NCBI GenBank assembly: GCA_018818785.1
Contig: JAHIRF010000002.1
Coordinates: forward strand, 135,874-199,873
DNA: 64,000 nt
Reading direction: 5' to 3'
Origin: Thermoplasmatota archaeon
GTDB taxonomy: Archaea > Thermoplasmatota > Thermoplasmata > UBA10834
Positions 1-56,577 of the stretch are shown here, piece by piece. A program made the translations under genes and the position numbers. Each line of letters starts with the position of its first letter. The stretch's first letter is position 1. Below the pieces are notes generated by a model. It had not been told where the DNA came from and did no database searches. It was given only the letters and a program-made list of their open reading frames with translations.

Positions 1-3000
1 AAATGACCTTATCAGATCAGATCTCGTCGACAGGGGTGCCATGTTCCATGAAGGGCAGATCACGCACAGATACGGGCACTGCTGGCGATGTAAGAGGCCG
101 ATCATATACAGGATAACCGAGCAATGGTTCCTGAAGGTCACCGACATAAAGGCGCAGCTCGAAGCTGCCAACGACCAGATCAAGTGGTATCCCGACTGGG
201 CCGGCTCATCCAGGGAGAAGGACTGGATAGCCAATGCAAGGGACTGGTGCATCAGCAGGCAGAGGTACTGGGGGACACCCGTTCCCATCTGGAGATGCGC
301 ATGCGGCAACGTCAAGGTGATCTCATCGATTGAGGAGCTCAAGTCTGGCCGAGGATACGTGGACGGTATGGATGTGCATCGCCCATGGATCGATAATATC
401 ACATTCGATTGCGAGAAGTGCGGGCAGACGATGACCAGGACACCAGATGTTCTGGATGTCTGGTTCGACGCGGGAGTCTGTTCTTGGGCGTCCTTGGGAT
501 ACCCAGCGAGCAAGGATGACTTCGATAAATGGTGGCCAAGCGAGTGGGTCACCGAGGCTCACGATCAGACCCGAGGCTGGTTCTACTCTCAGCTAGTGAC
601 GGGAGTTGTTGCATTCGGCAGATCACCATACAATTCCGTTCTCATGCACGGATGGGCACTTACGCCCCAGGGAGAGGCCATGTCTAAGAGCGAAGGCACG
701 GCAATAGACCCAATAGGTGCGGTGAACACACTTGGCGCCGACGCGCTGAGACTATATCTCCTGAAGGCCAACGCCCCTTGGGAGGACATTCTCTTCCAGA
801 CTGAGGGCGTCAAGGCGGCTAACAGGATCATAAACATCTTCTGGAACGTCTACAAATTCGCAGTCCTGTACATGTCGATAGATAAATTCGACGAATCACA
901 ATGGCGGACCCAATCTCTCAGAGAGACCTTCAGGCCAGAGGATCGATGGATGCTCTCCCGCATCGAGACGATGAAGAGGGACTTCACGCAGGCAATGGAG
1001 ATATATGAGGTGCATCGAGCGGCGAGGATACTCGAGGACTTCATAGTGACGGATCTCTCGCGATGGTACGTCAAGGTAGTGAGGGATAGACTCTGGAAGG
1101 AGGGGGATGACAGGGACAAGACCGCTGCGTTCAAAGTGCTGCACGAGGCGCTGTCAACATCTGCGACCATGCTCGCTCCAATAGCACCTCATGTTTGCGA
1201 AGCAATCTACACCAACCTCAACTCAAGGCCTGAGAGCGTGCACATGGTTCAATGGCCGACTCATGATCCAAGTTGGATCGATGAGGGTCTGGAAGAGGGC
1301 ATGGACCTCGTAAGGGAGATATCCGAGGTGATCGCCCGCATGCGCCAGGAGGCGAATGTGAACCTCCGATGGCCCTTGAAGCGCATCATCATCAAACCGC
1401 AGAATGATGATGTCGCTGATGCGCTGATACAGCTCAAGAATGTCATCCTGTCCCAGAACAACATCAAGGATATGCATGTCGTGCCGGTAGGTGAGGAATG
1501 GGACGAGATGGTCCTGAGCGTGGTTCCGAACCCCAACGCCATAGGGAAGGTCTATCGCCAGTGGTCGAGCAAGATCGCGGTTCTTCTCAAGAACAGGCCT
1601 GCGAAGTCGATCAAGGCCGGTATCGACAAGGGCGAGTACTCACTCGGTATCGAGGGCCAACTCGTCAAGATCCTTCCGAACATGGTGTCCTTCACTTCGA
1701 CGCTCCCACCAGATGTGGTCAGTGACGAGTTCTCCAAGGGTCTGTTCTATGTCGACCTCGAGGAGACCCCCGCGCTCGAAGCGGAGGGATTCGCGAGAGA
1801 GACCATCAGACGGATACAGCAGATGAGAAAGGACATGGGCCTCAACGTAGAGGAATTCATAAAGATAGAGATAGAGTGTTCGCGCAAGATCGAGAACGCC
1901 ATAGAGACCTGGAAGGACCATATCTCAAGGGAGACCAGGGCCAAACGGCTCGAGGTCGCCAATTCTCCAAGAGGGGAATACATCGTCGAGTGGAATGTCT
2001 CGAATGAACAACTCCTGATAGGCATAACCTCACTTAAGATGAAGAAGGCATTGGACGAGCTCGGAGCGATTCCTGGCATGACCGCCGAAAAGGCGCTCAA
2101 GATATTCGACCATGGCTACACTACGGTTGACGCCCTCAAGAACGCATCGATCGAAGACATAGCCTCGATCGATGGCATCACGAACGTCGATGGTAAGAAG
2201 ATCCATGACCATCTAAATGGGGTCGTCCACACAGAACCAGCTCCTGCAGCACCGCCAGCCCCGAGTGTCGCGCAGGCTACTACGGACGTAGCAGCTGCCC
2301 CTCCCCCGAACGAATTCATCGAGCGATTGAAAGCCGTTCCCGGCATGACAGCATCGCTGGCGGACGGATTGTACAGGGCAGGTTTCGTGTCCGAGGAATC
2401 CATCAGGAACGCTTCTGTGGACGATATGATGAAGGTGGACGGAATAAGTCTCGATGTCGCAACCCAGTTATTGGACGCATCCATGAACCCTTCCGTTTCT
2501 GACGGAGCGGCTCAAGTAGCACCCAAGAAGATAGAGCCAGGCGTGAGCGATCTCGAAAGGTCGTTTTCATACCTTGTCGAAGAGGACAGGCCCGAGACAT
2601 CGTACAGTCTGTTCGTAAGCGCGCTCAATAAGGGCATGAAGGGATATTGTGTCACGAGGAATTATCCCGCGAAGATACGCACCAAATTCGACCTCAAGGA
2701 TACGCCATTGGTTTGGCTCTCTAATGTAGGTCGCGAGAACGCCATCAGACCGAAGGACCTCGAGAAGCTGAGCGTCTCCCTGGAACAATTCCTCTCGCAA
2801 CCGGGCGGGGGAATCGTGCTCCTGGATGGTCTGGAGTATCTGATCACCAATAACAATTTCATAACCGTGTTGAGGCTGATACAATCCCTGAGGGATCAGG
2901 TCGCGATCAATCAATCCATACTCCTCATGGCTGTGAACAAGTCGACACTTGAGAGCCATCAGCTCAATCTGCTGGAGCGAGAGGTGGACTACACCATAAC

Positions 3001-3007
3001 TGGATGA
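1..3007 (+). CDS. ileS: Isoleucyl-tRNA synthetase, C-terminal ~2/3 (5' end lies outside the window). An in-frame C-terminal extension of about 330 aa follows: 2-4 helix-hairpin-helix motifs, a Pro/Ala-rich linker, then a DUF835-like domain (~2550..3007).
   Basis: Class I aaRS motifs are present (HCWRCKRPII, PDVLDVWFDAG, KMSKS as 'AMSKSEG'), followed by an anticodon-binding region. After about aa 665 come HhH-like repeats ('GAIPGMTAEKALKIFDHGYTTVDALKNASIEDIASIDGI', 'VPGMTASLADGLYRAGF...VDGISLDVATQLL'). The final ~150 aa aligns with two other proteins in this window (the 14495..15208 and 51324..53171 products). No stop codon interrupts the frame. Confidence 0.8.
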   Translation, partial: NDLIRSDLVDRGAMFHEGQITHRYGHCWRCKRPIIYRITEQWFLKVTDIKAQLEAANDQIKWYPDWAGSSREKDWIANARDWCISRQRYWGTPVPIWRCACGNVKVISSIEELKSGRGYVDGMDVHRPWIDNITFDCEKCGQTMTRTPDVLDVWFDAGVCSWASLGYPASKDDFDKWWPSEWVTEAHDQTRGWFYSQLVTGVVAFGRSPYNSVLMHGWALTPQGEAMSKSEGTAIDPIGAVNTLGADALRLYLLKANAPWEDILFQTEGVKAANRIINIFWNVYKFAVLYMSIDKFDESQWRTQSLRETFRPEDRWMLSRIETMKRDFTQAMEIYEVHRAARILEDFIVTDLSRWYVKVVRDRLWKEGDDRDKTAAFKVLHEALSTSATMLAPIAPHVCEAIYTNLNSRPESVHMVQWPTHDPSWIDEGLEEGMDLVREISEVIARMRQEANVNLRWPLKRIIIKPQNDDVADALIQLKNVILSQNNIKDMHVVPVGEEWDEMVLSVVPNPNAIGKVYRQWSSKIAVLLKNRPAKSIKAGIDKGEYSLGIEGQLVKILPNMVSFTSTLPPDVVSDEFSKGLFYVDLEETPALEAEGFARETIRRIQQMRKDMGLNVEEFIKIEIECSRKIENAIETWKDHISRETRAKRLEVANSPRGEYIVEWNVSNEQLLIGITSLKMKKALDELGAIPGMTAEKALKIFDHGYTTVDALKNASIEDIASIDGITNVDGKKIHDHLNGVVHTEPAPAAPPAPSVAQATTDVAAAPPPNEFIERLKAVPGMTASLADGLYRAGFVSEESIRNASVDDMMKVDGISLDVATQLLDASMNPSVSDGAAQVAPKKIEPGVSDLERSFSYLVEEDRPETSYSLFVSALNKGMKGYCVTRNYPAKIRTKFDLKDTPLVWLSNVGRENAIRPKDLEKLSVSLEQFLSQPGGGIVLLDGLEYLITNNNFITVLRLIQSLRDQVAINQSILLMAVNKSTLESHQLNLLEREVDYTITG

Positions 3008-3013
3008 GCCTGC

Positions 3014-3805
3014 TCAGGACAGCAGTTTGCAGACGATCTTCTGCAATCCGGGGACTGTGGGGAATCTTCCGACATCCTCGGGAGATACCCATTCATATCC
3101 TTGGTGTTCCCAATCTATCGATACCTGTGGATCGCGCACATCGAACAGGAATGAGTGTACGGTCCACACGACGTCGCCGTCTCTGAAGCTCTGAGGGTCG
3201 ATCGAGCGTGCCATGCGGGCGTTCTTCAAACTGACTTCCTCTTCGAGTTCACGTTTTGCGGCAACCTTCGGAGCCTCTCCCGGCTCTATGAACCCAGAAA
3301 CTCCGGCCCATAGTCCGCGATAGGAACCGACCTCGAGGCTCCTCTGCAACAGGAGTATCTTCCCTTTGTGCCTGAGAATGTTGGTGACGACCTGTTTCTC
3401 CTCCACATTCCTCAATTCGAGAGTCCCTGACTCTGCATCGACTATGGCCTTGTCCGATGTCCTCAAGAGGGATACGTCGATGCCATCTATCATCGGTATG
3501 CCCGCGATTATCGCACCCGTCGCCACAATAGGCTCCGCGATTGTATTGACTATAGCAGCTGGAGACGCATTCAGGATCTTGAGCTGATACATAGAATAGG
3601 AGCCGACCGTGCTGCCTTTACCATATGGGAATGCCAGGACGGTCTTCGAGACGCTCTTGCCCCTGCACTCGCATTCTGGATCGAGGATCCGGCCAGTCTT
3701 GGGGTCCACTCCTCCCAGGAATGAGAGTGGGATGCTGCTGGCCAGTACGGCGCCCTTTGCCATGCCGGCTCTGATGCACCTTCCCTTTATTATCGTGATA
3801 TCGCC
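3014..3805 (-). CDS. Phosphomevalonate dehydratase small subunit (aconitase X swivel domain, DUF126) fused to a C-terminal Nudix hydrolase domain. The start is probably non-ATG near 3800, because the long ORF to 3943 overlaps the upstream gene by 154 nt.
   Basis: 'IKGRCIRAGMAKGAVLASSIPLSFLGGVDPKTGRIL...GKSVSKTVLAFPYGKGSTVGSYSMY...PAAIVN' matches the AcnX small-subunit pattern. The C-terminal 'GLWAGVSGFIEPGEAPKVAAKRELEEEVSL' is a Nudix box (G-x5-E-x7-REuxEExGu). Confidence 0.7.
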   Translation of the reverse strand, partial: GDITIIKGRCIRAGMAKGAVLASSIPLSFLGGVDPKTGRILDPECECRGKSVSKTVLAFPYGKGSTVGSYSMYQLKILNASPAAIVNTIAEPIVATGAIIAGIPMIDGIDVSLLRTSDKAIVDAESGTLELRNVEEKQVVTNILRHKGKILLLQRSLEVGSYRGLWAGVSGFIEPGEAPKVAAKRELEEEVSLKNARMARSIDPQSFRDGDVVWTVHSFLFDVRDPQVSIDWEHQGYEWVSPEDVGRFPTVPGLQKIVCKLLS

Positions 3806-4959
3806 TCCAGGAGTTGGTCCGTGGTTCTGAATGTCGCCCTCTGTTTCCCAAGGGTCGGCAGATATACCATGGCCTTGCCTGAGTCTGAGGCCGTCCTCTT
3901 GAACATCTTCTCGATCGGCGCGACCACCATGCATGTATCGCATAGCACTTTGCCGAACCGCTTCAAGGTCTTGACTGCGTCAGGTGCGTTGGCATATGCT
4001 TTGCGCGAAGTGCAGAACCAGACGTTGCAGTCCTTTCGAGGGCGCTTTCCGTCCAGAGTACGAGCCATCCTGCGCAACTCCTGAGTGGAACAGTGGGGGC
4101 ATCCTATCGCCACCAGGTCCCATGAATCATCGCCAGAGAGAGAATCCTGGCATTCCTTCAATTCGGATTCAGGAAGCGAAACACATTCCTCTATCCTGCT
4201 TGTATCAATCTTCGATCTGACACCTGGTCTTCCGTAGAGATACATCGATACTGCACTCGTAGCGGCCATTGCGGCACCGAAGGATTTGTGTTCATCATTC
4301 GTCAAAGTAAGGTTAGTGATGTAGGGTATCCTGTTGCCAGCTATCCTGCCGACGACATAACCCAGCAACGGCACAGAGCCTTGAGGTATCGATTCCACAT
4401 CTATCTGCACGCTGGGAAGTCTGTTCTCGATGAGATGCAGCCCGTACTCGGCTGTCTTGCCGATGACGGCAGCTGCCAATGCAGAAGGCCCACCCTCTCT
4501 GTTGGTCAACGCCCCTAATACGGAGTTCGCGAATACCGTAGCGGACGACTCTGCCCACGCGATATGTTGTCCGGCCCGGGGTCGATTGCCTGCCAAATAG
4601 GGCGTGCAACTGTATAATGGTTCAAGGCCCATCGAAGCATATGCTCTGACGATCCTCATCTGCTTCTCCTTGAATCTCTCGTCGATACCCATCGATCGCC
4701 ATCTCAACACATCCATGCCCAAAGGGTTGACGGAAGCCCTCACTGAAACATGTGCCTCTGACGAGAAATCCTCGATGAACTTTATTCCCGCATCCCCGAC
4801 CGTCTTGAATGACGCTCCCGAGACCTGGGCCGATGATATCGGGACGAGTCTCTTCGCGCCATAGATATCACCTAGAGCGACCAGAAGCTCTATCGCCTTC
4901 TGTCTCCCGAACCCTTCCTCGCCTTTCAGAATCCGCTCTTCCTTCGAAGTGAGATGCAT
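3790..4959 (-). CDS. Phosphomevalonate dehydratase large subunit (aconitase X catalytic domain, DUF521)
   Basis: 389 aa. 'SSAQVSGASFKTVGDAGIKFIED...SVNPLGMD...YSCTPYL...AWAESSATVFANSVLGALTNREGGPSALAAAVIGKT' is typical of the AcnX/DUF521 family. It lies immediately upstream of, and on the same strand as, the DUF126 small subunit. Confidence 0.72.
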   Translation of the reverse strand: MHLTSKEERILKGEEGFGRQKAIELLVALGDIYGAKRLVPISSAQVSGASFKTVGDAGIKFIEDFSSEAHVSVRASVNPLGMDVLRWRSMGIDERFKEKQMRIVRAYASMGLEPLYSCTPYLAGNRPRAGQHIAWAESSATVFANSVLGALTNREGGPSALAAAVIGKTAEYGLHLIENRLPSVQIDVESIPQGSVPLLGYVVGRIAGNRIPYITNLTLTNDEHKSFGAAMAATSAVSMYLYGRPGVRSKIDTSRIEECVSLPESELKECQDSLSGDDSWDLVAIGCPHCSTQELRRMARTLDGKRPRKDCNVWFCTSRKAYANAPDAVKTLKRFGKVLCDTCMVVAPIEKMFKRTASDSGKAMVYLPTLGKQRATFRTTDQLLEAISR

Positions 4960-12327: not shown

Positions 12328-12747
12328 TCATCGTGTCTTCCGACTCATCTCCTGGCCTTGGGCAGACCAGTGTAGGAAGGATGGTTCATCTTCCAGATCG
12401 ACCGTTTCTGAGCTAGATTCGCCGTTGGCTTTGACGAATACGCGCAGTCTCCCGTCCTGAAGGACCACCTCGGCGGATTCGACCGTCGAACGGTACATAG
12501 CCACGGACTTGCCACCGATGGACACTGCCTTGTCCTCTTCTCGGATCATGCCCGCCTGTTTGAGCAGACGTATCCGTCTGTAGCAGGCCGCGATGGGTAT
12601 CCCTAGCGCTTCGCTGATCTCCGTGGCGTTCATGGCCTGCACCTCCGTCATGGAGAGTATCTCCGATGAATGTTCGTCGAGCATGAGTTTGAAGGAATCC
12701 ATGGCATTCATCGAGTCACGACCTATATCCTCGACAGACCTGACCAT
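12328..12747 (-). CDS. Winged-helix (ArsR/TrmB-like) transcriptional regulator. The 18522..18893 product is a paralog.
   Basis: 'EISEALGIPIAACYRRIRLLKQAGMI' HTH. Shares the motif 'IPIAACYRRI' with the 18522..18893 product. Last gene of the KaiC-like operon. Confidence 0.55.
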   Translation of the reverse strand: MVRSVEDIGRDSMNAMDSFKLMLDEHSSEILSMTEVQAMNATEISEALGIPIAACYRRIRLLKQAGMIREEDKAVSIGGKSVAMYRSTVESAEVVLQDGRLRVFVKANGESSSETVDLEDEPSFLHWSAQGQEMSRKTR

Positions 12748-13670
12748 TCCTGGTCGAAGTTGCTGCCTCCAATACCTTGTAGATGGACAGATGAGTGTTC
12801 GAAACCCGGCTTGTTGGCGGCCCTTTGGAGATAATTCACATCACCAGTCTCTATATCGAGATGAAGGAACACGACATTGTCCACTTTGAGGACTGGCAGT
12901 ATCTTGCCCGCATCCATGCCTTCGGGGTTCTCCACCATCTGGCCACACGCGGAACACTTGCCTGAATCGAGAGGTCCATGCTGTCCACAGAACGGACAGT
13001 CTACCTCGTCGAGTGGGTTGTTGTCGAACTCCATGTCTGTGAATATTCCTACGATACCGGTGTCTCCCAGCTCCAACCGGGTGCCGCATATCGGACACCT
13101 GTCAGTGTTCAATTCAACGACAGTACCACAATGTGTGCACTCGAAAACGAAGTCGGGACCACCTTTGTCGTCCTGCAGATAATGCAGGATGCCCAACTCG
13201 GCATCGAAGTGTATCAGGGGATTGCCGTCCTTCGTGACGAAATCCTCGGGTTGGAATTCTTTGAGATTCTCAGCGCGCAGGAGTTCCTCCATCTCAGCCT
13301 CGTCTATTCCTTGTATGTACAATGCGCGGCACTTCGGACACCTCTCTGCGCCATCGGGCATCTGGGTGTTGCACTCGAAGCATTGGAATGTCTTCATGAC
13401 GGGTCTTGGAGGAGCGTTAGAAGATCTAGCGACAAACTGGTCTAGAACTTGAGCGGTGATCTGGATATCATCGCGTGTAATCTTGGGCGCCTTCAGGGCA
13501 TCAGCCATATGTTTCCTGCTCATAGGCTTCGCCTTGACAACCCGTCTTAGATGCCTCTTCTCTTCCTTGACAGTGATGAAGGTACCTTTCTTTCCTAATC
13601 TCCTGGCCTTCGCTGGGGCATTCGCATCCTCGTCGACCCCTTCATCAGTCTGTTGGCGTTTCGCTTTCAT
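12723..13670 (-). CDS. Four-zinc-ribbon protein, function unknown
   Basis: 315 aa with four CxxC...CxxC pairs (CFEC..CPKC; CTHC..CPIC; CPFC..CSAC). Basic N-terminus. Confidence 0.5.
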   Translation of the reverse strand: MKAKRQQTDEGVDEDANAPAKARRLGKKGTFITVKEEKRHLRRVVKAKPMSRKHMADALKAPKITRDDIQITAQVLDQFVARSSNAPPRPVMKTFQCFECNTQMPDGAERCPKCRALYIQGIDEAEMEELLRAENLKEFQPEDFVTKDGNPLIHFDAELGILHYLQDDKGGPDFVFECTHCGTVVELNTDRCPICGTRLELGDTGIVGIFTDMEFDNNPLDEVDCPFCGQHGPLDSGKCSACGQMVENPEGMDAGKILPVLKVDNVVFLHLDIETGDVNYLQRAANKPGFEHSSVHLQGIGGSNFDQEWSGLSRI

Positions 13671-13805
13671 ATCCCAGATCCTCTCGTCAGATGTTTCGAA
13701 TCGTTTCTCTCAGCTCAACGATTGGATAGGATTACTTATACCGGTGTCGACACGGTAATCAGCGCTGATAACACCAGACCCTGCCAGTCTTCAGGCGTCG
13801 GAGGC

Positions 13806-14498
13806 TCAGAATCGCGCCTTCAGCACTATCACGCCGTCTTTGCGTGTTATATCAACCGATTGCTTCCCAGTCAGATGGTTGGTGCCTCTCATCTTGAGCA
13901 CCTCTATGTATTTGCGCCTGGCATCTCCTTCGTCGGAGAGCATCAGAAGGATGACCCCATCTACCGCGTACGATATCTCCGCGGGGTACAGTTCACCCGG
14001 ATGTACTTCACCTGTCAGAATGGTGACGGCCTGCCAGTTCTTCAATCGGGTCGCGAGATCGAACGCGAATACCCTGTAGTCATCTTTCATCATCGTACCC
14101 ACCACCGTGATTGGATCGATGACGATCCTGTTGGGCATCACCTCGGCGATCTTCTTGTCTATGATGTCGAGTATCTCTTCACCACTCCTCTTTCGGAGTT
14201 CGAGGCCGAGGTCGAAGTAGACTATCTCCTTGCCGTAGAACTCACGCTTGGCGAACTCGAACTGAGTGGCATATCTCAGCATCCACTGCGCAGGCTCGCT
14301 GAGTGTGCTTATGTAGAGGCACTGCTCGCCATTCTCAGCACCTGAGAACATGAATTTCTGGGCGAACGTGGTCTTGCCAGATCCCGCACCGCCAGCTACG
14401 AGGACAACCGATGGATAGGGGAAGCCTCCTTCGATCATATCGTCCAGGCCAGGAATGCCACTGCTCAGTCTCGGGAAGCCATTCTCGATCATATTCAA
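13806..14498 (-). CDS. KaiC-like / RecA-superfamily ATPase (single KaiC domain)
   Basis: Walker A 'VLVAGGAGSGKTTFAQKF', KaiC-like 'CLYISTLSEP', Walker B 'RIVIDPITVV'. 230 aa. Confidence 0.8.
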   Translation of the reverse strand: MNMIENGFPRLSSGIPGLDDMIEGGFPYPSVVLVAGGAGSGKTTFAQKFMFSGAENGEQCLYISTLSEPAQWMLRYATQFEFAKREFYGKEIVYFDLGLELRKRSGEEILDIIDKKIAEVMPNRIVIDPITVVGTMMKDDYRVFAFDLATRLKNWQAVTILTGEVHPGELYPAEISYAVDGVILLMLSDEGDARRKYIEVLKMRGTNHLTGKQSVDITRKDGVIVLKARF

Positions 14499-15208
14499 AT
14501 CACTCCTTTCGAAATATCGCTCTTCGCCAGTCCTCCGGGACTGCCCTGGAAGACATGTCTTATCTGCATATCAGGTGACAGTTCGATCGTCTTCGTCGCG
14601 ATTTCAGACACAAACTCGAAGAGGACCGGATGAACCTCCTTGTCCATCGCCAAGACGGTGATCACTCTCTGGGAGGCTCTGTTCCTCAGCACCGCGAGAT
14701 ACTTCGTGAAGAATGTCTCCACGCTCGCCATCGTGTTATAGGTCAGCAGGGTGGATACATTGTCCATCACGACGAACTCGACCATTGAGAACTCTGATGA
14801 GATATCAGGGTTCGAGCCATTCGAACCTGCTATGAACTCCGGTAGAACCTCGATGTGAAACGGTCCTTTCTGGAATTCAGCAGCGACCGCACCGCCTTTC
14901 GTATCTGACGATTGGACCGATATGGCATCAACGAAAGACAGATTGGTCTGATCGATGCCATGGAGCTGGAGGAGATGTGAGACATATTGGTGGGGTCTAT
15001 CGATCGTTATCATGATGCCTTTCTTCTGTTTTCGCTCCAGGAGCGCTTTCAGAAGAACCAAGTTCAATCGGACCAGATTCGTATACTTCACCGATATGAG
15101 ATACAGCCCGCTCTCTCCTTCAGTCTGAATCTCTGAGCTGATGATCTTGACTAGCTGGAGATCCTTCTCATTCACTCGTCGCACACCCACTACACGACTA
15201 TCACTCAA
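14495..15208 (-). CDS. Stand-alone DUF835-like domain protein. The gene overlaps the KaiC-like ATPase start by 4 nt.
   Basis: 'GIMITIDRPHQYVSHLL...NLSFVDAIS' and 'VEFVVMDNVSTLLTYNTMASVETFFTKYLAVLRNRASQRVITVLAMDKEV' align collinearly with the C-terminal domains of the IleRS extension and of the 51324..53171 product. No Walker A motif. Confidence 0.5.
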   Translation of the reverse strand: MSDSRVVGVRRVNEKDLQLVKIISSEIQTEGESGLYLISVKYTNLVRLNLVLLKALLERKQKKGIMITIDRPHQYVSHLLQLHGIDQTNLSFVDAISVQSSDTKGGAVAAEFQKGPFHIEVLPEFIAGSNGSNPDISSEFSMVEFVVMDNVSTLLTYNTMASVETFFTKYLAVLRNRASQRVITVLAMDKEVHPVLFEFVSEIATKTIELSPDMQIRHVFQGSPGGLAKSDISKGVI

Positions 15209-51323: not shown

Positions 51324-53171
51324 TCACAGGTAATCGTGTACCTCGTCGAACTCGTCGCTGATGATCTTGTACTCATCCTCGGGAATGCGTTCCTTGTTCA
51401 CTGGGACGATGACCGATGCGCCGTGAATCGCGGATAGGTCGTTCACCCGCTTCACGAATGCCAGCGCCGCTTCGAACCCGTTTTCAGATAGTATGACCTC
51501 AAGGCCCTCTATCAGCAGTCCTGAGCGCTTCGTCGTCATCAGGAAAGTGGAGACGGTCTCCATCGCGTCCCCGTCCAGGTCGTGGATGTTCACGCTGTCT
51601 ATGTCGGTGGTGCTGTCGCACATGCATTTCACGTCGAAATCATCGCCGAGGTCGTGTTGCTCGCGCACCTTACCTGGGAATTCGTTCGTCATGATGAGCG
51701 CGGGTCGTCCAGAAAGTCCCATGGCGCGTATCATGCTGTATCCTCTTCGTGAATCGATGTCCACGATGATGTAGCTTCTACCGCCCTTCACCTCCTCCTG
51801 GAATGCACCACATCTAGTGCACTGAAGAGTATAGGGGTCTTCTTCGCCGGTTGACAGGAAGGTCTCATCACATGCCTTGCACTGGATCGACCGCGTGTGC
51901 TCTGGGAACAACACCTCGCCGCATTGCGGGCACGCCTGCGCCTTCTCCGCACAATCCATGTGCATCTGATGTCCGCAGATGCATTCGTAGAGTTCCTTCT
52001 CCGCATCAATCGGACGCATGCACATCTGACATCTCAGCATGTGGGAATCGTCATCCTGCTTCACGACCGCCTGCTTCACGGGGATGACGAGATCATCCGG
52101 TATCTCTAACGTCGCACGGTCATAGAGCGTCTTGGAGAACACGTAGCTTGCGAAGATGAACCCGGGCACCAGGAAATACATGTAGGAACCGTAAATCATC
52201 GTGCCCCTGCTGGCGAATGAGAACATGAATGGGAGCACATAGAACAGGGAAAGGATTCCGACCAGCGCCCATGTGAACCATCTCACAATCGGGAGCTGCT
52301 TGGCTGAACCTCTGAAACGCTTCGGATGCTGCATCAGATACTTGCTGAACCTCTTCGCCGATATCCTCAATATCAGTATGCATCCGAACAGGAGCACTAT
52401 GAAGGATATCTGGCTGTTCTCATAGATGCTGAAAGGCTCATAGGTCATGGTCTCTTGGACGGCCGACTCGCCCGGAAGAACCTCGCCCTCAAAGGTATAC
52501 CAGATGATCGTACCGATGGGGGTCCTTAGCTCGCTGATCTTTCCTGCAACCAGATCAGGGGATGTGAAGCTGCTCATGCCGAACATCATCACCCGGTCCT
52601 TCACTATCAATGTGCCATCGAATGTGAAGCCGGTGACAGTGTTGAGTGCACCAGCGAAGGTCTCCAACGGAACCTCCGATGGCCTCATGAGCTTCGTGAC
52701 GCTCTCGCCTATGCAATTGAACCTTATGCTGATGGACATCACATCGGTAGAGGAATATCTCGTGTCGACTATGCCCGATGTGGCATGTCTTAATTCGTAA
52801 TCGGTCATGTTCTCGAAGTCGGTGGGACTATTGATCGTCATGCCCCAATGCTGCCTGCCGGCCAGGGCATCCGTGAACGCGACAAGAAACGCTCTGGCCT
52901 CGGACACTTCGAGATACTGGTTATCGTTCGTGTCGAAATTTGTATAATATCCCCTGCTTTCGAATATGGATTGACGCAATTCGATGGCAGGGACGCCTTC
53001 GAATGTCAGCTGCACCTTGCCATCGCCTTCCATCGTGTCCAGGACGGTGAACGACATCTTCGATTCGATAATCATCACGTTCCCATCGTGGGCGGATGTT
53101 CCCATGGGAACTGAGACGATGAGTGCCATGCACAAGAAGAGGACCAACATTGCTGTCCTGAAACGCATCAT
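51324..53171 (-). CDS. Multidomain membrane protein: signal peptide, extracellular domain, ~4 TM, RING-H2-like zinc finger and further zinc ribbons, then a C-terminal DUF835-like domain
   Basis: 'CQMCMRPIDAEKELYECICGHQMHMDCAEKAQACPQCGE' (C3H2C3-like). The C-terminal 'RSGLLIEGLEVILSENGFEAALAFVKRVNDLSAIHGASVIVPVNKE' aligns with the IleRS extension and the 14495..15208 product. Confidence 0.55.
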   Translation of the reverse strand: MMRFRTAMLVLFLCMALIVSVPMGTSAHDGNVMIIESKMSFTVLDTMEGDGKVQLTFEGVPAIELRQSIFESRGYYTNFDTNDNQYLEVSEARAFLVAFTDALAGRQHWGMTINSPTDFENMTDYELRHATSGIVDTRYSSTDVMSISIRFNCIGESVTKLMRPSEVPLETFAGALNTVTGFTFDGTLIVKDRVMMFGMSSFTSPDLVAGKISELRTPIGTIIWYTFEGEVLPGESAVQETMTYEPFSIYENSQISFIVLLFGCILILRISAKRFSKYLMQHPKRFRGSAKQLPIVRWFTWALVGILSLFYVLPFMFSFASRGTMIYGSYMYFLVPGFIFASYVFSKTLYDRATLEIPDDLVIPVKQAVVKQDDDSHMLRCQMCMRPIDAEKELYECICGHQMHMDCAEKAQACPQCGEVLFPEHTRSIQCKACDETFLSTGEEDPYTLQCTRCGAFQEEVKGGRSYIIVDIDSRRGYSMIRAMGLSGRPALIMTNEFPGKVREQHDLGDDFDVKCMCDSTTDIDSVNIHDLDGDAMETVSTFLMTTKRSGLLIEGLEVILSENGFEAALAFVKRVNDLSAIHGASVIVPVNKERIPEDEYKIISDEFDEVHDYL

Positions 53172-53330: not shown

Positions 53331-56213
53331 CTATTCGGCATATACTGCGGGCCGACCAGGCTTCGCAAACCTGCTACGTCCTTTCGGGTCAACCAACTCG
53401 GGGTCGTCGACCGAACGAACTTCGACCGCACATCCGAACTGCTCGCCCAGGAAACCGCTGGCGGCTTTGAGTACCTCGAGCTCGTCGAATTTTGCAGACA
53501 GCATGACTCGGTCATGTTCGGCAGCCCTCGAAACCTCCTGTGCGACATCCTTTGCGAAAGCAGGTATTGCCTTCTTCATCTCAGGAGTCTTCGCATCGGG
53601 CATGGCAGCCTTTATCAATGCGGACACATCCACCTTTCCTTTCGGTTGACCGAGTGCAGCTGATAGCATCTCGATCTTCCACGATGGAGCCACCATGATG
53701 GAGATCTTCGTAGGGCTCATGCTCGTGACCTTCAGGATCTCAGATACATCCTGCATGAGATTCTGGATGAGCTTCTCCTTGGCCTCCTCCGATATCACTT
53801 CATCGTTCCTGCTTCCATCGGAGAGTCGGTGCAGAGATACGAACGGCTTCTGGCCTATGTGTTCCCATAGTTCCTCGGACAGATGAGGTGTGATCGGAGC
53901 CATGAGCGGTATCCAGGTTCTCAGCGCATCCATCAGGACGCTCCTGCTCTTTCCGCCTCGTCTGAGGTACCATTTGATATCCTGAGATATCTCGAAATAC
54001 ACTTCGTTGGAGTACGAGCGGATATCGTAGTCTGCCATATGCTCGTGGAGCTTGGCCAGGCGCATGTTCAACCTCGCCAAGAGCCACGCGTCCATTCCGG
54101 TGCTCTCCTCGGTCCCTATCCTCAGCAGATCATCCACAAGGATCCAGGTCTTCTCCAACCGGTCGCTGTAGCTCTCGACCTTCTCGTCATCCCAAGCAAC
54201 ATCGACGAAGAGAGAGGATATGTGCGCATAGAAGAGCCGCATCGCATCGACCCCGAACTTCTCTGCAGCATCGGGGATCGGCTGCGCGCCACCTTTCGAT
54301 TTGGATATCTTGCTACCTGTAGATGTGATGTACCAGTTGACCATGATCCCGTTCGGGCGGTGCTCCGGCCTCAAGATCGCCACATGGTTCATCAGGAAGA
54401 CCGGGAAGTGAACGGTCATGTGCTCCTTGCCCCCGAGGTTGATGTCGAGAGGATACCAGTACTCGAACTCGGCCCTCATCATGCCGAGGGTCTCCACGGA
54501 TACGCCCGATTCTGCCTCGACGACCGTCACATCCCCTTCACCAAGGATCACATAATCGAAGAACTTCTCAGTCATGCCATCGGGTTTTATGATGCCTTCG
54601 TTGGCGTATCTGGACAGGACATAATAGACAGGATACAACGTGCTATCGGCGATCGCCTCGATTATCCATCTCTGGTCGAACGGGAATCTCGTACCGAGCC
54701 AATTGCCAAGGCGGACACATGCTCTCTCCCTGTACCATTCTATGACGTTCTGTATGTTGTCGAAGTACTCCTTGGGCAGGATCTTCATCGTCCTTGCGTG
54801 CTCTTTCGACCGCTCCTTCAGGCCAGGGTTTGCATAATCGATGAACCATTGGTCGGGTATCTTCCGTACGAGGACCTTCTCACCGCATCGGCAGATGACC
54901 TCCTCAGACAGGTCGCGCATGATCGCCGCTTGGCTGCCAGAGAGCATCTGCGCCCTTATCGCATCCTTAGCGGCCTCGACAGGCTTTCCTGAGAACTCTC
55001 CACATGAAGAGTTCATGACACCCCTGTGGAAGCCGGCCTTGTAGACCTCCTTGGTCGCCTCATCCAATTTGGGATCGGCCATAGTCGAAATGCCCATCCT
55101 CTCGCATATCTCGACCGCGGGCATCGGCCCCCAGCCTGGTGTGTCTATGATCGCGATCGGCTTCGCACCCTCTATCATCTCATCCGTCAGATTGTACCGG
55201 GCCCTCATATCGGAGTTGCGCTTGAGCTCGACCAGACCGATCCAATCGACCGGTGCATCCGATGGGACACTCATGACGAGCCCGGTGCCAATGTTCGGAT
55301 CGCACAGATTCGACGGGAACACAGGGATCATCTTGCCCGTGAATGGCGCCTTGCACCTCTTCCCCATCAACGCGCTGCCGTCCGTCGAACCCAGCACCTT
55401 GACCGAATCCATCTGCAGCGCGAGCTTCTCGGCGGCGGGTCTGCTGACCACCCATGTCTCGCCATCAACCTCTGCATCGACGTATTCCACATCAGGGTTC
55501 ACCCAGAAGTTCGTGAGGCCGAACACGGTCTCAGGCCTCAGGGTCGCTGCAACCAGATTCCTGCCGTCATCGAGATCGAACTTCAGCAAGGTGTATTCCA
55601 GCACCTCGGCGGTCCCGCCCTTCTGAATGTCGGTCTCGGAGGCATCGATCGCAACCGGCCCATGCTCAAGACAGGCCGGTGCGAAATATGGTTTCTGAAT
55701 GAGCAGTCCATGTGCCTTCAGCTTGCGCATCTGCCATTCTATGAACCTGGAATAATCCGGATATGTCGTGCATGTGAACCTGCGCCAATCAGACATGAAG
55801 CCGAACCGCTTCCAATAATCATTCACATAGACCTCGTTGAAGAACCTGACGACACCATCTGCGTTCGCCAGAGATTCGATCGTCTCGGATGTGCACCCAT
55901 TGGCTTCCAGTATTCCGATAGTTGCTGGATCCCCTCGCTCCACCTTACGAGCGAAACTGATAGCGCCGTTGCCAGTAGAATGCGTCCCCACAGGGAACAG
56001 GACATTGTGTCCAGTCATCATCTTGTACCTGACGATCGCGTCGGTGATGGTGTATCCCCTCATATGCCCGACATGGAGATACCCTGTGACACCAGGGTAT
56101 GCGAATATCATGAAGAATTTCTTCTTTCCAGGCACGGGATTCGATTCGTTTATCCTGGCCTTGTACCAGGCGGTCCTCCATTTGGCTTCCATCGCCGAGA
56201 AATCCAGTGTCAT
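53331..56213 (-). CDS. leuS: Leucyl-tRNA synthetase (archaeal type)
   Basis: 'HVGHMRGY' HIGH motif, 'KISKSKG' KMSKS motif, CP1 editing domain. The long ORF extends to 56438, but the start is likely the Met at 'MTLDFSAMEAKW'. Confidence 0.9.
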   Translation of the reverse strand: MTLDFSAMEAKWRTAWYKARINESNPVPGKKKFFMIFAYPGVTGYLHVGHMRGYTITDAIVRYKMMTGHNVLFPVGTHSTGNGAISFARKVERGDPATIGILEANGCTSETIESLANADGVVRFFNEVYVNDYWKRFGFMSDWRRFTCTTYPDYSRFIEWQMRKLKAHGLLIQKPYFAPACLEHGPVAIDASETDIQKGGTAEVLEYTLLKFDLDDGRNLVAATLRPETVFGLTNFWVNPDVEYVDAEVDGETWVVSRPAAEKLALQMDSVKVLGSTDGSALMGKRCKAPFTGKMIPVFPSNLCDPNIGTGLVMSVPSDAPVDWIGLVELKRNSDMRARYNLTDEMIEGAKPIAIIDTPGWGPMPAVEICERMGISTMADPKLDEATKEVYKAGFHRGVMNSSCGEFSGKPVEAAKDAIRAQMLSGSQAAIMRDLSEEVICRCGEKVLVRKIPDQWFIDYANPGLKERSKEHARTMKILPKEYFDNIQNVIEWYRERACVRLGNWLGTRFPFDQRWIIEAIADSTLYPVYYVLSRYANEGIIKPDGMTEKFFDYVILGEGDVTVVEAESGVSVETLGMMRAEFEYWYPLDINLGGKEHMTVHFPVFLMNHVAILRPEHRPNGIMVNWYITSTGSKISKSKGGAQPIPDAAEKFGVDAMRLFYAHISSLFVDVAWDDEKVESYSDRLEKTWILVDDLLRIGTEESTGMDAWLLARLNMRLAKLHEHMADYDIRSYSNEVYFEISQDIKWYLRRGGKSRSVLMDALRTWIPLMAPITPHLSEELWEHIGQKPFVSLHRLSDGSRNDEVISEEAKEKLIQNLMQDVSEILKVTSMSPTKISIMVAPSWKIEMLSAALGQPKGKVDVSALIKAAMPDAKTPEMKKAIPAFAKDVAQEVSRAAEHDRVMLSAKFDELEVLKAASGFLGEQFGCAVEVRSVDDPELVDPKGRSRFAKPGRPAVYAE

Positions 56214-56280
56214 CTTGGTCAGCCAGCAATATGACGGAAGGGTTGATACCAATAAAAGGTTTCTTGAGAAGCCGATATCC

Positions 56281-56577
56281 TCAGGCTCCGCGCCTCTTGC
56301 TGTGCAAGAAGAACGCAGCTGGACCCGCAGTCGCCGACACCACTCCCACGAGGCTGAGCACAAGCCCGATGAACAATGGCAGGGAGGATGAGCTGAAGAC
56401 CTCATGGGATTCGGATGTCGATCCATCGCTACCCGCACTGACCGTTTCGAGTGAGGATAGAGAGTATACTGTTATGACGAAACCCATGACGAACAATGCT
56501 ATGCCGACCCCCACAACGATAGGTGTTCCCTTCAGCTTGAAGGGGCGCTTGCGGTCGCTATCATCATTTGATGCCAT
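56281..56577 (-). CDS. Small 2-TM membrane protein
   Basis: 98-aa ORF. Confidence 0.3.
   Translation of the reverse strand: MASNDDSDRKRPFKLKGTPIVVGVGIALFVMGFVITVYSLSSLETVSAGSDGSTSESHEVFSSSSLPLFIGLVLSLVGVVSATAGPAAFFLHSKRRGA

Follow-up and report, generated by a model that had tools for sequence, protein, structure and literature searches.

An isoleucyl-tRNA synthetase fused in frame to helix-hairpin-helix domains and a KaiC-like DUF835 domain in Thermoplasmatota

Organization of the locus and of the fused gene

The gene described here lies at the left edge of a 64,000-nucleotide (nt) stretch of DNA from a Thermoplasmatota archaeon (GenBank assembly GCA_018818785.1, contig JAHIRF010000002.1, positions 135,874 to 199,873 of the forward strand), which was analysed as a whole and is called the window below. 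It encodes an isoleucyl-tRNA synthetase (IleRS) that continues, in the same reading frame, into a tail made of two helix-hairpin-helix (HhH) domains and a C-terminal DUF835 domain (Table 1). Frame 2 of the forward strand is free of stops from nt 2, at the window edge, to nt 3004, giving 1001 codons, and the 5′ part of the gene runs off the left edge of the window. In the product, Pfam recognises tRNA-synt_1 (amino acids (aa) 35-257, E-value 7e-59), Anticodon_1 (aa 314-462, 1e-35) and DUF5915 (aa 481-676, 6e-21), the last of which is the usual C-terminal domain of IleRS of the archaeal/eukaryotic type. Beyond these it finds HHH_5 in two stretches (E 2e-16 and 60.5 bits against a cut-off of 27, or E 1.5e-17 and 64.2 bits when the tail is searched alone) and DUF835 (PF05763; aa 865-994, E 7e-35, 120.2 bits against a gathering score of 33.1; the match spans positions 6-135 of the 136 in the profile). 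Judged by these domain matches, the protein belongs both to the IleRS family and to Pfam DUF835.

After the IleRS body, which extends to about aa 678 (nt ~2035), come 323 more codons in frame, in agreement with the extension of about 330 codons proposed in a first-pass annotation of this DNA. By our own arithmetic, a stop-free run of 323 codons would occur by chance with a probability of the order of 1e-6 at the local G+C; it is because of the domain E-values, which decide the question, that we consider the extension to be genuine coding sequence. No break in G+C or skew is seen across the junction between the IleRS body and the tail. The same annotation had described two pairs of HhH motifs separated by a Pro/Ala linker, and this is borne out by the two HHH_5 stretches, by the sequence TEPAPAAPPAPSVAQATTDVAAAPPP, and by a segment of the structural model (see below) with a predicted local distance difference test score (pLDDT) <50.

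An ATG is present at the junction in the window (nt 2040). The corresponding Met is not conserved, the aligned stretch reading K-M-K, K-L-R, K-V-K or H-L-K in the homologues. A consensus scan, which is a crude tool, detected no TATA-like box inside the gene, and no Shine-Dalgarno-like sequence is found ahead of nt 2040. The suspicion that internal signals might mark a separate gene was thus not borne out.

Table 1. Features of the fused ileS gene in the window (nt positions in the window; aa numbering of the 1001-residue product)
Feature	Position	Strand	Basis
IleRS body, C-terminal 678 aa of ~1051 (N-terminal ~373 aa upstream of the window)	2..2035	+	Pfam
First (HhH)2 domain, aa 679-738	2036..2215	+	Pfam HHH_5, HHH_2; PDB profile and NCBIfam matches; model
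Pro/Ala-rich flexible linker 1, aa 739-768	2216..2305	+	Sequence; pLDDT <50 at model residues 78-95
Second (HhH)2 domain, aa 769-828	2306..2485	+	Second stretch of Pfam HHH_5; HHH at aa 798-816; model helices 101-160
Linker 2, aa 829-855	2486..2566	+	Low pLDDT at model residues 167-174; no regular structure to residue 187
DUF835 domain, aa 856-1001, RecA/KaiC-fold alpha/beta domain without P-loop ('iKaiC')	2567..3004	+	
Stop codon of the fused gene	3005..3007	+	Frame reading

The fusion is conserved across a large part of the Thermoplasmatota

A search with the 1001-aa product gave 120 best homologues with 98-49% identity, every one of which has PF05763 beside IleRS domains. Nearly all are full-length proteins of 1277-1446 aa, with a few truncated entries, and they come from Thermoplasmata, Methanomassiliicoccales and Methanomassiliicoccus metagenome-assembled genomes (MAGs). 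NCBI and the Joint Genome Institute (JGI) name these fused homologues plain isoleucine--tRNA ligase. The segment that follows the IleRS part measures 226-394 aa in every complete aligned homologue.

In addition, one genome per GTDB species was scanned, which yielded 176 loci with a relative of the tail; the best 80 of these were examined, the comparisons being made throughout at the level of loci and not of whole genomes. DUF5915 and DUF835 lie in a single stop-free open reading frame (ORF) in 74 of these 80 species representatives, and the six exceptions are explained by runs of N or long-read frameshifts (four cases) and by contig ends (two cases). The gene order is also kept, with FEN1, the ileS fusion, convergent AcnX/NUDIX, S27e, S24e, DUF359, Spt4 and Rpb7. 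In the window, the convergent neighbour is a gene for an AcnX small subunit-NUDIX protein, which occupies the opposite strand from nt 3014 onwards. The fusion is also present on complete chromosomes, such as CP070748.1 and OY970070.1, and other closed genomes that have it include CP070732.1 and CP070736.1.

The presence of the tail in all 120 best homologues, its maintenance in 74/80 species and the purifying selection acting on it (see below) establish a real in-frame fusion and not a missed stop or frameshift. The relatives, among which the first-pass annotation had reckoned that the extension might prove to be lacking, have it as well. The fusion is therefore genuine, apparently ancient, and has been vertically inherited across a large part of the Thermoplasmatota, comprising the Methanomassiliicoccales with allied orders and Ca. 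Sysuiplasma, in at least 74 species.

Three apparent stand-alone HhH-DUF835 genes of 240-290 aa next to ileS (P0059, P0011 and P0013), which could have represented a split-gene state, were all found to be artefacts, due to a gene call nested inside an intact 1439-aa ORF (locus L003), a run of N at a scaffold gap in ileS (L006) and a frameshift (L005). Two loci with a fragmented ileS (L001, L002) were likewise discarded, as their assemblies, made from long reads, also have FEN1 and Cpn60 in pieces. Several long-read MAGs of Methanomassiliicoccaceae (these two, and also L050, L070, L071 and L079) contain frameshifts that break ileS, FEN1 and Cpn60, and give rise to spurious 'DUF5915-HhH-DUF835' database proteins of 430-590 aa.

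The synthetase part

The orthologue P0121 has 1374 aa, is 98% identical across the 1001 aa of the window protein and passes the NCBIfam equivalog model for ileS, TIGR00392, with 956.1 bits against a cut-off of 621.4. The KMSKS-type loop reads AMSKS (nt 677-691, within the catalytic class I domain, of which the window covers the second half) and follows the pattern [APRQ]M[SH]KS in the clade, the second Lys being always retained and the first replaced by Ala, Pro, Arg or Gln. Replacement of this first Lys is known among active class I enzymes. The HIGH region lies upstream of the window and reads H-[IVL]-G-T clade-wide in the orthologues (aa 51-57 of P0121), with Thr and not His at position four. 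The CP1 editing peptide WTTTPWT, which is also upstream of the window and was located in the orthologues, is invariant among the proteins with intact motifs. Since the catalytic and editing motifs are conserved and the ileS equivalog model is passed, the enzyme part looks like a complete, working and editing-competent IleRS.

Constraint and architecture of the tail

Identities to the window protein were measured for mid-distance and far homologues, and they differ strongly between the parts of the protein. The DUF835 domain has 90% and 71% identity, respectively, compared with 80% and 62% for the catalytic domain, 78% and 60% for DUF5915, and only 34-43% and 26-33% for the HhH domains. The ratios of nonsynonymous to synonymous substitution rates (dN/dS) follow the same order, with 0.01-0.04 for DUF835, 0.03-0.11 for the whole IleRS body (against close relatives) and 0.13-0.35 for the HhH domains. 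In these sequence comparisons, DUF835 is the most conserved part of the protein, above the catalytic domain itself, and the HhH domains are the least conserved. Junction and tail alike are under strong purifying selection.

Residues 669-1001 were modelled with AlphaFold2 from a 67-sequence alignment (mean pLDDT 87.8). The model has two (HhH)2 domains of five helices each (pLDDT ~95), as well as two linkers that are disordered (pLDDT <50-60) and an alpha/beta DUF835 domain (pLDDT 90-98). The assignment as (HhH)2 domains follows from the two HhH motifs, the five-helix bundle and the HHH_5 score above the cut-off. In a profile search of the PDB and in NCBIfam, these domains match the N-terminal HhH of haloarchaeal eL32, the AR1/AR2 repeats of NusA and the N-terminal domains of RadA/Rad51, and the first of them is of the RadA-N-terminal/NusA-AR/haloarchaeal eL32-N-terminal type.

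This region is highly variable among the homologues. Linker 1 differs in length and composition, and the number of HhH copies ranges from 0 to 2, the second domain being absent from some proteins, or joined by Zn ribbons. Some tails consist of one HhH domain plus low-complexity sequence and others of a Pro-rich linker only; in the Methanomassiliicoccales type one or two Zn ribbons are added, and in P0445, from Ca. Sysuiplasma, DUF5915 and DUF835 are connected by a linker of ~40 residues, with no HhH. The longest tails reach ~1290 aa and contain tetratricopeptide (TPR) repeats. The HhH domains are also net acidic (mean charge -1.3 and -2.3; pI 5.8 and 4.2 for those of the window), in which they resemble the protein-binding acidic repeats of NusA.

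We infer that the HhH domains probably behave as an exchangeable tether or adaptor. Because the HhH region is plastic and net acidic, the conserved functional unit would consist of the IleRS body and DUF835. Moonlighting in nucleic-acid binding through the HhH motifs, which had been suggested for this protein, loses ground for the same reason, the motifs being present in 0 to 2 copies, poorly conserved and net acidic.

A P-loop-less KaiC-like domain

The modelled DUF835 domain has a RecA-like alpha/beta fold. The Walker A P-loop motif, GxxxxGK[ST], is absent from aa 856-1001, and the loop between strand 1 and helix 1, where a P-loop would be, is instead the acidic EEDRPETS; a Walker-B-like strand, LLDGLEYL, is invariant. 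Because the P-loop is missing, we do not classify the domain as an ATPase but as an inactivated KaiC-like domain, in agreement with the label 'iKaiC' given to DUF835 by Galperin et al. 2018 (PMC5847659). By this sequence criterion the window protein is not a KaiC-type ATPase. No solved DUF835 structure was found by sequence, as the profile search of the PDB matched the HhH part only.

Two relatives of this domain had been proposed within the window, and one of them was substantiated. The Cys-rich membrane protein encoded at 51324-53171 on the reverse strand has a C-terminus homologous to DUF835 (Pfam E 1.5e-11; E 3e-15 with our own hidden Markov model), whereas the stand-alone protein next to a KaiC-like gene, a 237-aa ORF (14495-15208, reverse strand), gave no support for homology to the tail (hhalign against the DUF835 profile, E 0.4, which is not significant; its match to Pfam KaiC, with E 0.026, is below the cut-off).

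When the DUF835 domain alone was searched against 1.84 billion representatives, 2859 matches were obtained at E<=1e-3 and 99 at E<=1e-30, and in most of the 150 best representatives the domain is C-terminal. The long proteins among the best matches are nearly all IleRS-type fusions of 1228-2329 aa, the remaining ones being PAS-GAF-DUF835 sensors or proteins with N-termini of no assigned family. Among the long representatives with domains scanned, no other aminoacyl-tRNA synthetase (aaRS) is joined to DUF835, all those found being IleRS or IleRS-like. In a neighbour-joining tree of DUF835 domains, those linked to IleRS mostly cluster together, with proteins of unassigned N-terminus interspersed. 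We draw no conclusion from it on a single origin, because the tree has no support values.

Paralogues that have lost the catalytic motifs

Alignment of 25 IleRS-type DUF835 proteins revealed three classes. All three signature motifs are present in 12, five are intermediates in which mostly KMSKS is lost or degenerate, and eight have neither HIGH nor KMSKS nor the editing peptide (P0371, P0382, P0383, P0388, P0390, P0413, P0419 and P0361, from other Thermoplasmatota). These eight still match the ileS model from end to end, with 200-355 bits, far under its cut-off. Their tRNA-synt_1 scores are 78-117 bits, compared with 300-400 in the intact class, and Anticodon_1 is steady at ~95 bits. In the annotation by the NCBI pipeline PGAP they appear as 'class I tRNA ligase family protein'. 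Genomes with pseudo-IleRS genes include GCA_021792665.1 and GCA_027324445.1. On the evidence of their motifs and domain scores, they are pseudo-synthetases that keep the anticodon-binding module, the HhH domains and DUF835. In P0382, a match to the RadA model spans the HhH domain and extends into the core. The gene for P0371 (L090 8001-12140; L091 5760-9899) lies between those for an archaeosine tRNA-guanine transglycosylase and for an AsnC-type ligand-binding domain, on whose side acyl-CoA dehydrogenase and aminotransferase genes are also found.

Some NCBI entries named 'isoleucine--tRNA ligase' have no KMSKS, for example the intermediates P0356 and P0359 and the fully degenerate P0361. Going by the loss of this motif, such entries are probably not synthetases.

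Other loci in the window

A LeuRS-like class Ia synthetase is encoded at 53331-56438 on the reverse strand, and ~160 nt downstream, on the same strand, lies the gene for the DUF835-containing membrane protein mentioned above. This 615-aa protein has a signal peptide, an extracytoplasmic domain, transmembrane helices and a Cys-rich C1/RING-like finger, followed by DUF835. The two genes are also adjacent in the relatives L087 and L088 (42-57% identity), and in L089 an MMPL gene is inserted between them. As the whole neighbourhood is syntenic, this adjacency may be inherited and not functional.

An apparent four-gene operon with a KaiC-like ATPase occupies 12328-15208 on the reverse strand. It comprises the above 237-aa ORF, which lacks a P-loop and matches KaiC only faintly; a KaiC-like ATPase of 230 aa with a single domain (encoded at 13806-14498, in a stop-free frame of 13809-14570; PF06745 E 3e-42; GGAGSGKT as Walker A); a 315-aa double-Zn-ribbon protein; and a helix-turn-helix regulator. 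This operon, which is unlinked to ileS, is a candidate KaiC-hub partner for the DUF835 proteins.

In the region convergent to ileS (3014-4959, reverse strand), the small ('swivel') subunit of an AcnX-type dehydratase is fused to NUDIX, with the Nudix box in the 3014-3943 ORF, and it adjoins the AcnX large subunit (3790-4959). As the ORFs listed for these two genes share ~150 nt, the downstream gene probably has its true start inside its ORF. The AcnX-NUDIX fusion is also found in L002, L003 and L006, and L001 has a separate NUDIX gene call.

Possible function and alternative explanations

We tentatively favour a model, plausible though short of probable, in which the IleRS body serves as an input through its occupancy by tRNA(Ile) and isoleucine, and the iKaiC domain as a docking or output module towards KaiC-type signalling. 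The partner bound by the iKaiC domain would be a conserved one, for which a KaiC-family ATPase ring or other DUF835 proteins are the likeliest candidates, and the HhH domains and linkers would form a flexible, exchangeable tether, so that the protein would charge tRNA(Ile) and also report its charging status to a KaiC-type signalling network. The pseudo-IleRS paralogues may represent dedicated sensor versions of the same device. A sensor/output role is preferred over that of a pure enzyme tether because DUF835 is elsewhere found C-terminal to REC, PAS-GAF or a membrane receptor, because the link between IleRS and DUF835 outlives catalysis, with the anticodon-binding domain kept, and because DUF835 is under extreme constraint.

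A more specific proposal, which we regard as rather doubtful, is that the IleRS-iKaiC proteins and their dead paralogues constitute an archaeal amino-acid-starvation sensor, signalling via iKaiC to KaiC-family ATPase hubs. The signal would lie in the relative amounts of uncharged and charged tRNA(Ile), or in the isoleucine occupancy of the synthetase body. If this were true, the Thermoplasmatota would gain a functional counterpart of GCN2 or RelA, which to our knowledge is otherwise lacking in archaea; how archaea sense amino-acid starvation is, as far as we know, not settled in the field.

Several considerations weigh against the sensor/output model. We found no experiment on any DUF835 protein in the literature, and the IleRS gene, in the window as in relatives, is flanked by FEN1 and AcnX/NUDIX and not by a KaiC gene. 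A purely structural role, in oligomerisation or in the assembly of a translation complex, would account equally well for the strong conservation of DUF835, and the parallel with GCN2 is one of architecture. The fused protein may not be the sole IleRS of its genome, nor need the pseudo-IleRS paralogues coexist with an intact copy.

The main rival is that DUF835 acts as an assembly scaffold, with self-association or association with other DUF835 domains gathering IleRS into a translation complex or to the membrane, and with no signalling involved. We consider this unlikely but worth serious attention, since related RecA-fold proteins build rings or filaments (PH0284, FlaH, KaiC, Elp456, RadA), the high conservation of DUF835 would be expected, and flexible linkers are typical of tethers. 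There are also precedents in metazoan and archaeal aaRS complexes: the multi-aminoacyl-tRNA synthetase complex MARS assembles only if human IleRS and LeuRS have their added C-terminal domains (PMC4394549), and in archaea, aaRS form complexes with EF1A and ribosomes (PMC2094089, PMC4005694). In the window itself, LeuRS is directly followed by a membrane-anchored DUF835 protein, an adjacency kept in relatives. However, retention of the tail by catalytically dead paralogues is hard to explain if its purpose is to position an enzyme, and DUF835 is elsewhere joined to sensor modules (REC, PAS-GAF) and not to translation proteins, with no second aaRS-DUF835 fusion among the long representatives whose domains were checked.

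It is still less likely that the tail is a cis-acting nucleic-acid appendage, in which the HhH domains, perhaps together with the RecA-like domain in the manner of Elp456, would bind tRNA, rRNA or DNA non-specifically and so raise the affinity for tRNA or tether the enzyme to the ribosome, like the appended RNA-binding domains of eukaryotic synthetases. (HhH)2 domains are indeed classic non-sequence-specific nucleic-acid binders, and the closest matches here include the N-terminal domains of eL32 and RadA/Rad51; but they are the least conserved part of this protein (26-43% identity, dN/dS 0.13-0.35), number between 0 and 2 per protein, give way to or stand beside Zn ribbons or low-complexity stretches, and are dispensed with in P0445 of Ca. 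Sysuiplasma, and their net acidity would argue against strong binding. Very improbable, in our view, is the production of HhH-DUF835 also, or mainly, as a separate protein through an internal start or proteolysis of the linkers, which would make the fusion functionally minor. The disordered linkers would be accessible to proteases, there is the ATG at nt 2040, and gene callers sometimes give a separate protein of 240-290 aa; all three such genes, however, are artefacts, homologues do not share the Met at the junction, neither a TATA-like box inside the gene nor a Shine-Dalgarno-like sequence ahead of nt 2040 was detected, and the frame is maintained in 74/80 species. An artefactual joining of ileS to a neighbouring HhH-DUF835 gene, through a lost stop, a frameshift or chimerism of the assembly, can practically be dismissed. 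Nothing in its favour was found, the fusion recurs in assemblies made independently in many studies and with different sequencing technologies, complete chromosomes included, and purifying selection acts across the junction and tail.

Significance and comparison with known systems

The first-pass annotation knew of no described case of such a fusion. This holds for the literature, where we found no description of IleRS-DUF835 or of any aaRS-iKaiC fusion, a passing mention in Makarova, Galperin and Koonin 2017 mBio being possible, but not for the databases, in which the sequences are abundant as plain 'isoleucine--tRNA ligase'. As the fused proteins are so numerous there, the fusion is undescribed rather than unseen. 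What is new is its recognition and interpretation and not the sequence data, and its components are of known kinds, an aaRS with an appended domain and an iKaiC output. In eukaryotes, domains appended to aaRS are a familiar feature, through which the multi-synthetase complex is built and synthetases acquire signalling roles; we know of few in archaea. In the present case a class Ia synthetase, itself essential, is permanently coupled to the output module that comparative genomics has proposed for KaiC-centred archaeal signalling, in a broad clade that includes the gut and wetland methanogens of the Methanomassiliicoccales. The fusion may link tRNA charging to archaeal signalling, and it gives DUF835 a defined partner for study. 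The sharing of the tail with the pseudo-IleRS proteins leads to the testable idea of a synthetase-shaped sensor of tRNA(Ile) charging or isoleucine supply.

The nearest known systems are the DUF835/iKaiC outputs of archaeal signalling proteins (PMC5847659), which share PF05763, its C-terminal position in a multidomain protein and the P-loop-less RecA/KaiC fold. In those proteins the N-terminal part is REC, PAS, GAF or a membrane sensor, whereas here it is a full-length and apparently active housekeeping aaRS, and the IleRS-linked DUF835 domains are unusually conserved in comparison. The single-domain archaeal KaiC-like ATPases PH0284 (2dr3), FlaH/ArlH (4wia, 4yds) and SSO2452 (2w0m) have 13-18% identity to the domain, but they possess Walker A and bind ATP, whereas in the window DUF835 the EEDRPETS loop replaces the P-loop. 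RadA/Rad51 have the same order of HhH followed by a RecA fold; the window protein differs in its two HhH domains, long disordered linkers and lack of an ATPase motif, and we found no sign of recombinase function in it.

Among synthetases with appendages, the C-terminal repeats of metazoan IleRS (PMC4394549) are likewise a non-catalytic addition to an IleRS of the eukaryotic/archaeal type, there mediating protein contacts, but they and the DUF835 tail have unrelated folds, independent origins and different partners. One IleRS fusion is catalogued in NCBIfam, as NF040702 'ileS_w_GNAT', but its added domain is an N-acetyltransferase, and P0121, with 403 bits, stays below the cut-off of 1999 set for that model; NCBIfam has no model for the IleRS-DUF835 architecture.

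A further comparison is with GCN2, in which a HisRS-like domain is combined with a protein kinase and senses uncharged tRNA. In both, a signalling domain is attached to an aaRS or to a body resembling one, and the dead aaRS-like versions have their equivalent here in the pseudo-IleRS-DUF835 paralogues. The two differ in the class of the synthetase (class II HisRS versus class Ia IleRS), in the output (kinase versus iKaiC) and in that the synthetase of the window is apparently active; Pfam finds no protein kinase domain on the window product. The window protein is therefore not a homologue of GCN2 but, by analogy of architecture, it may work like it.

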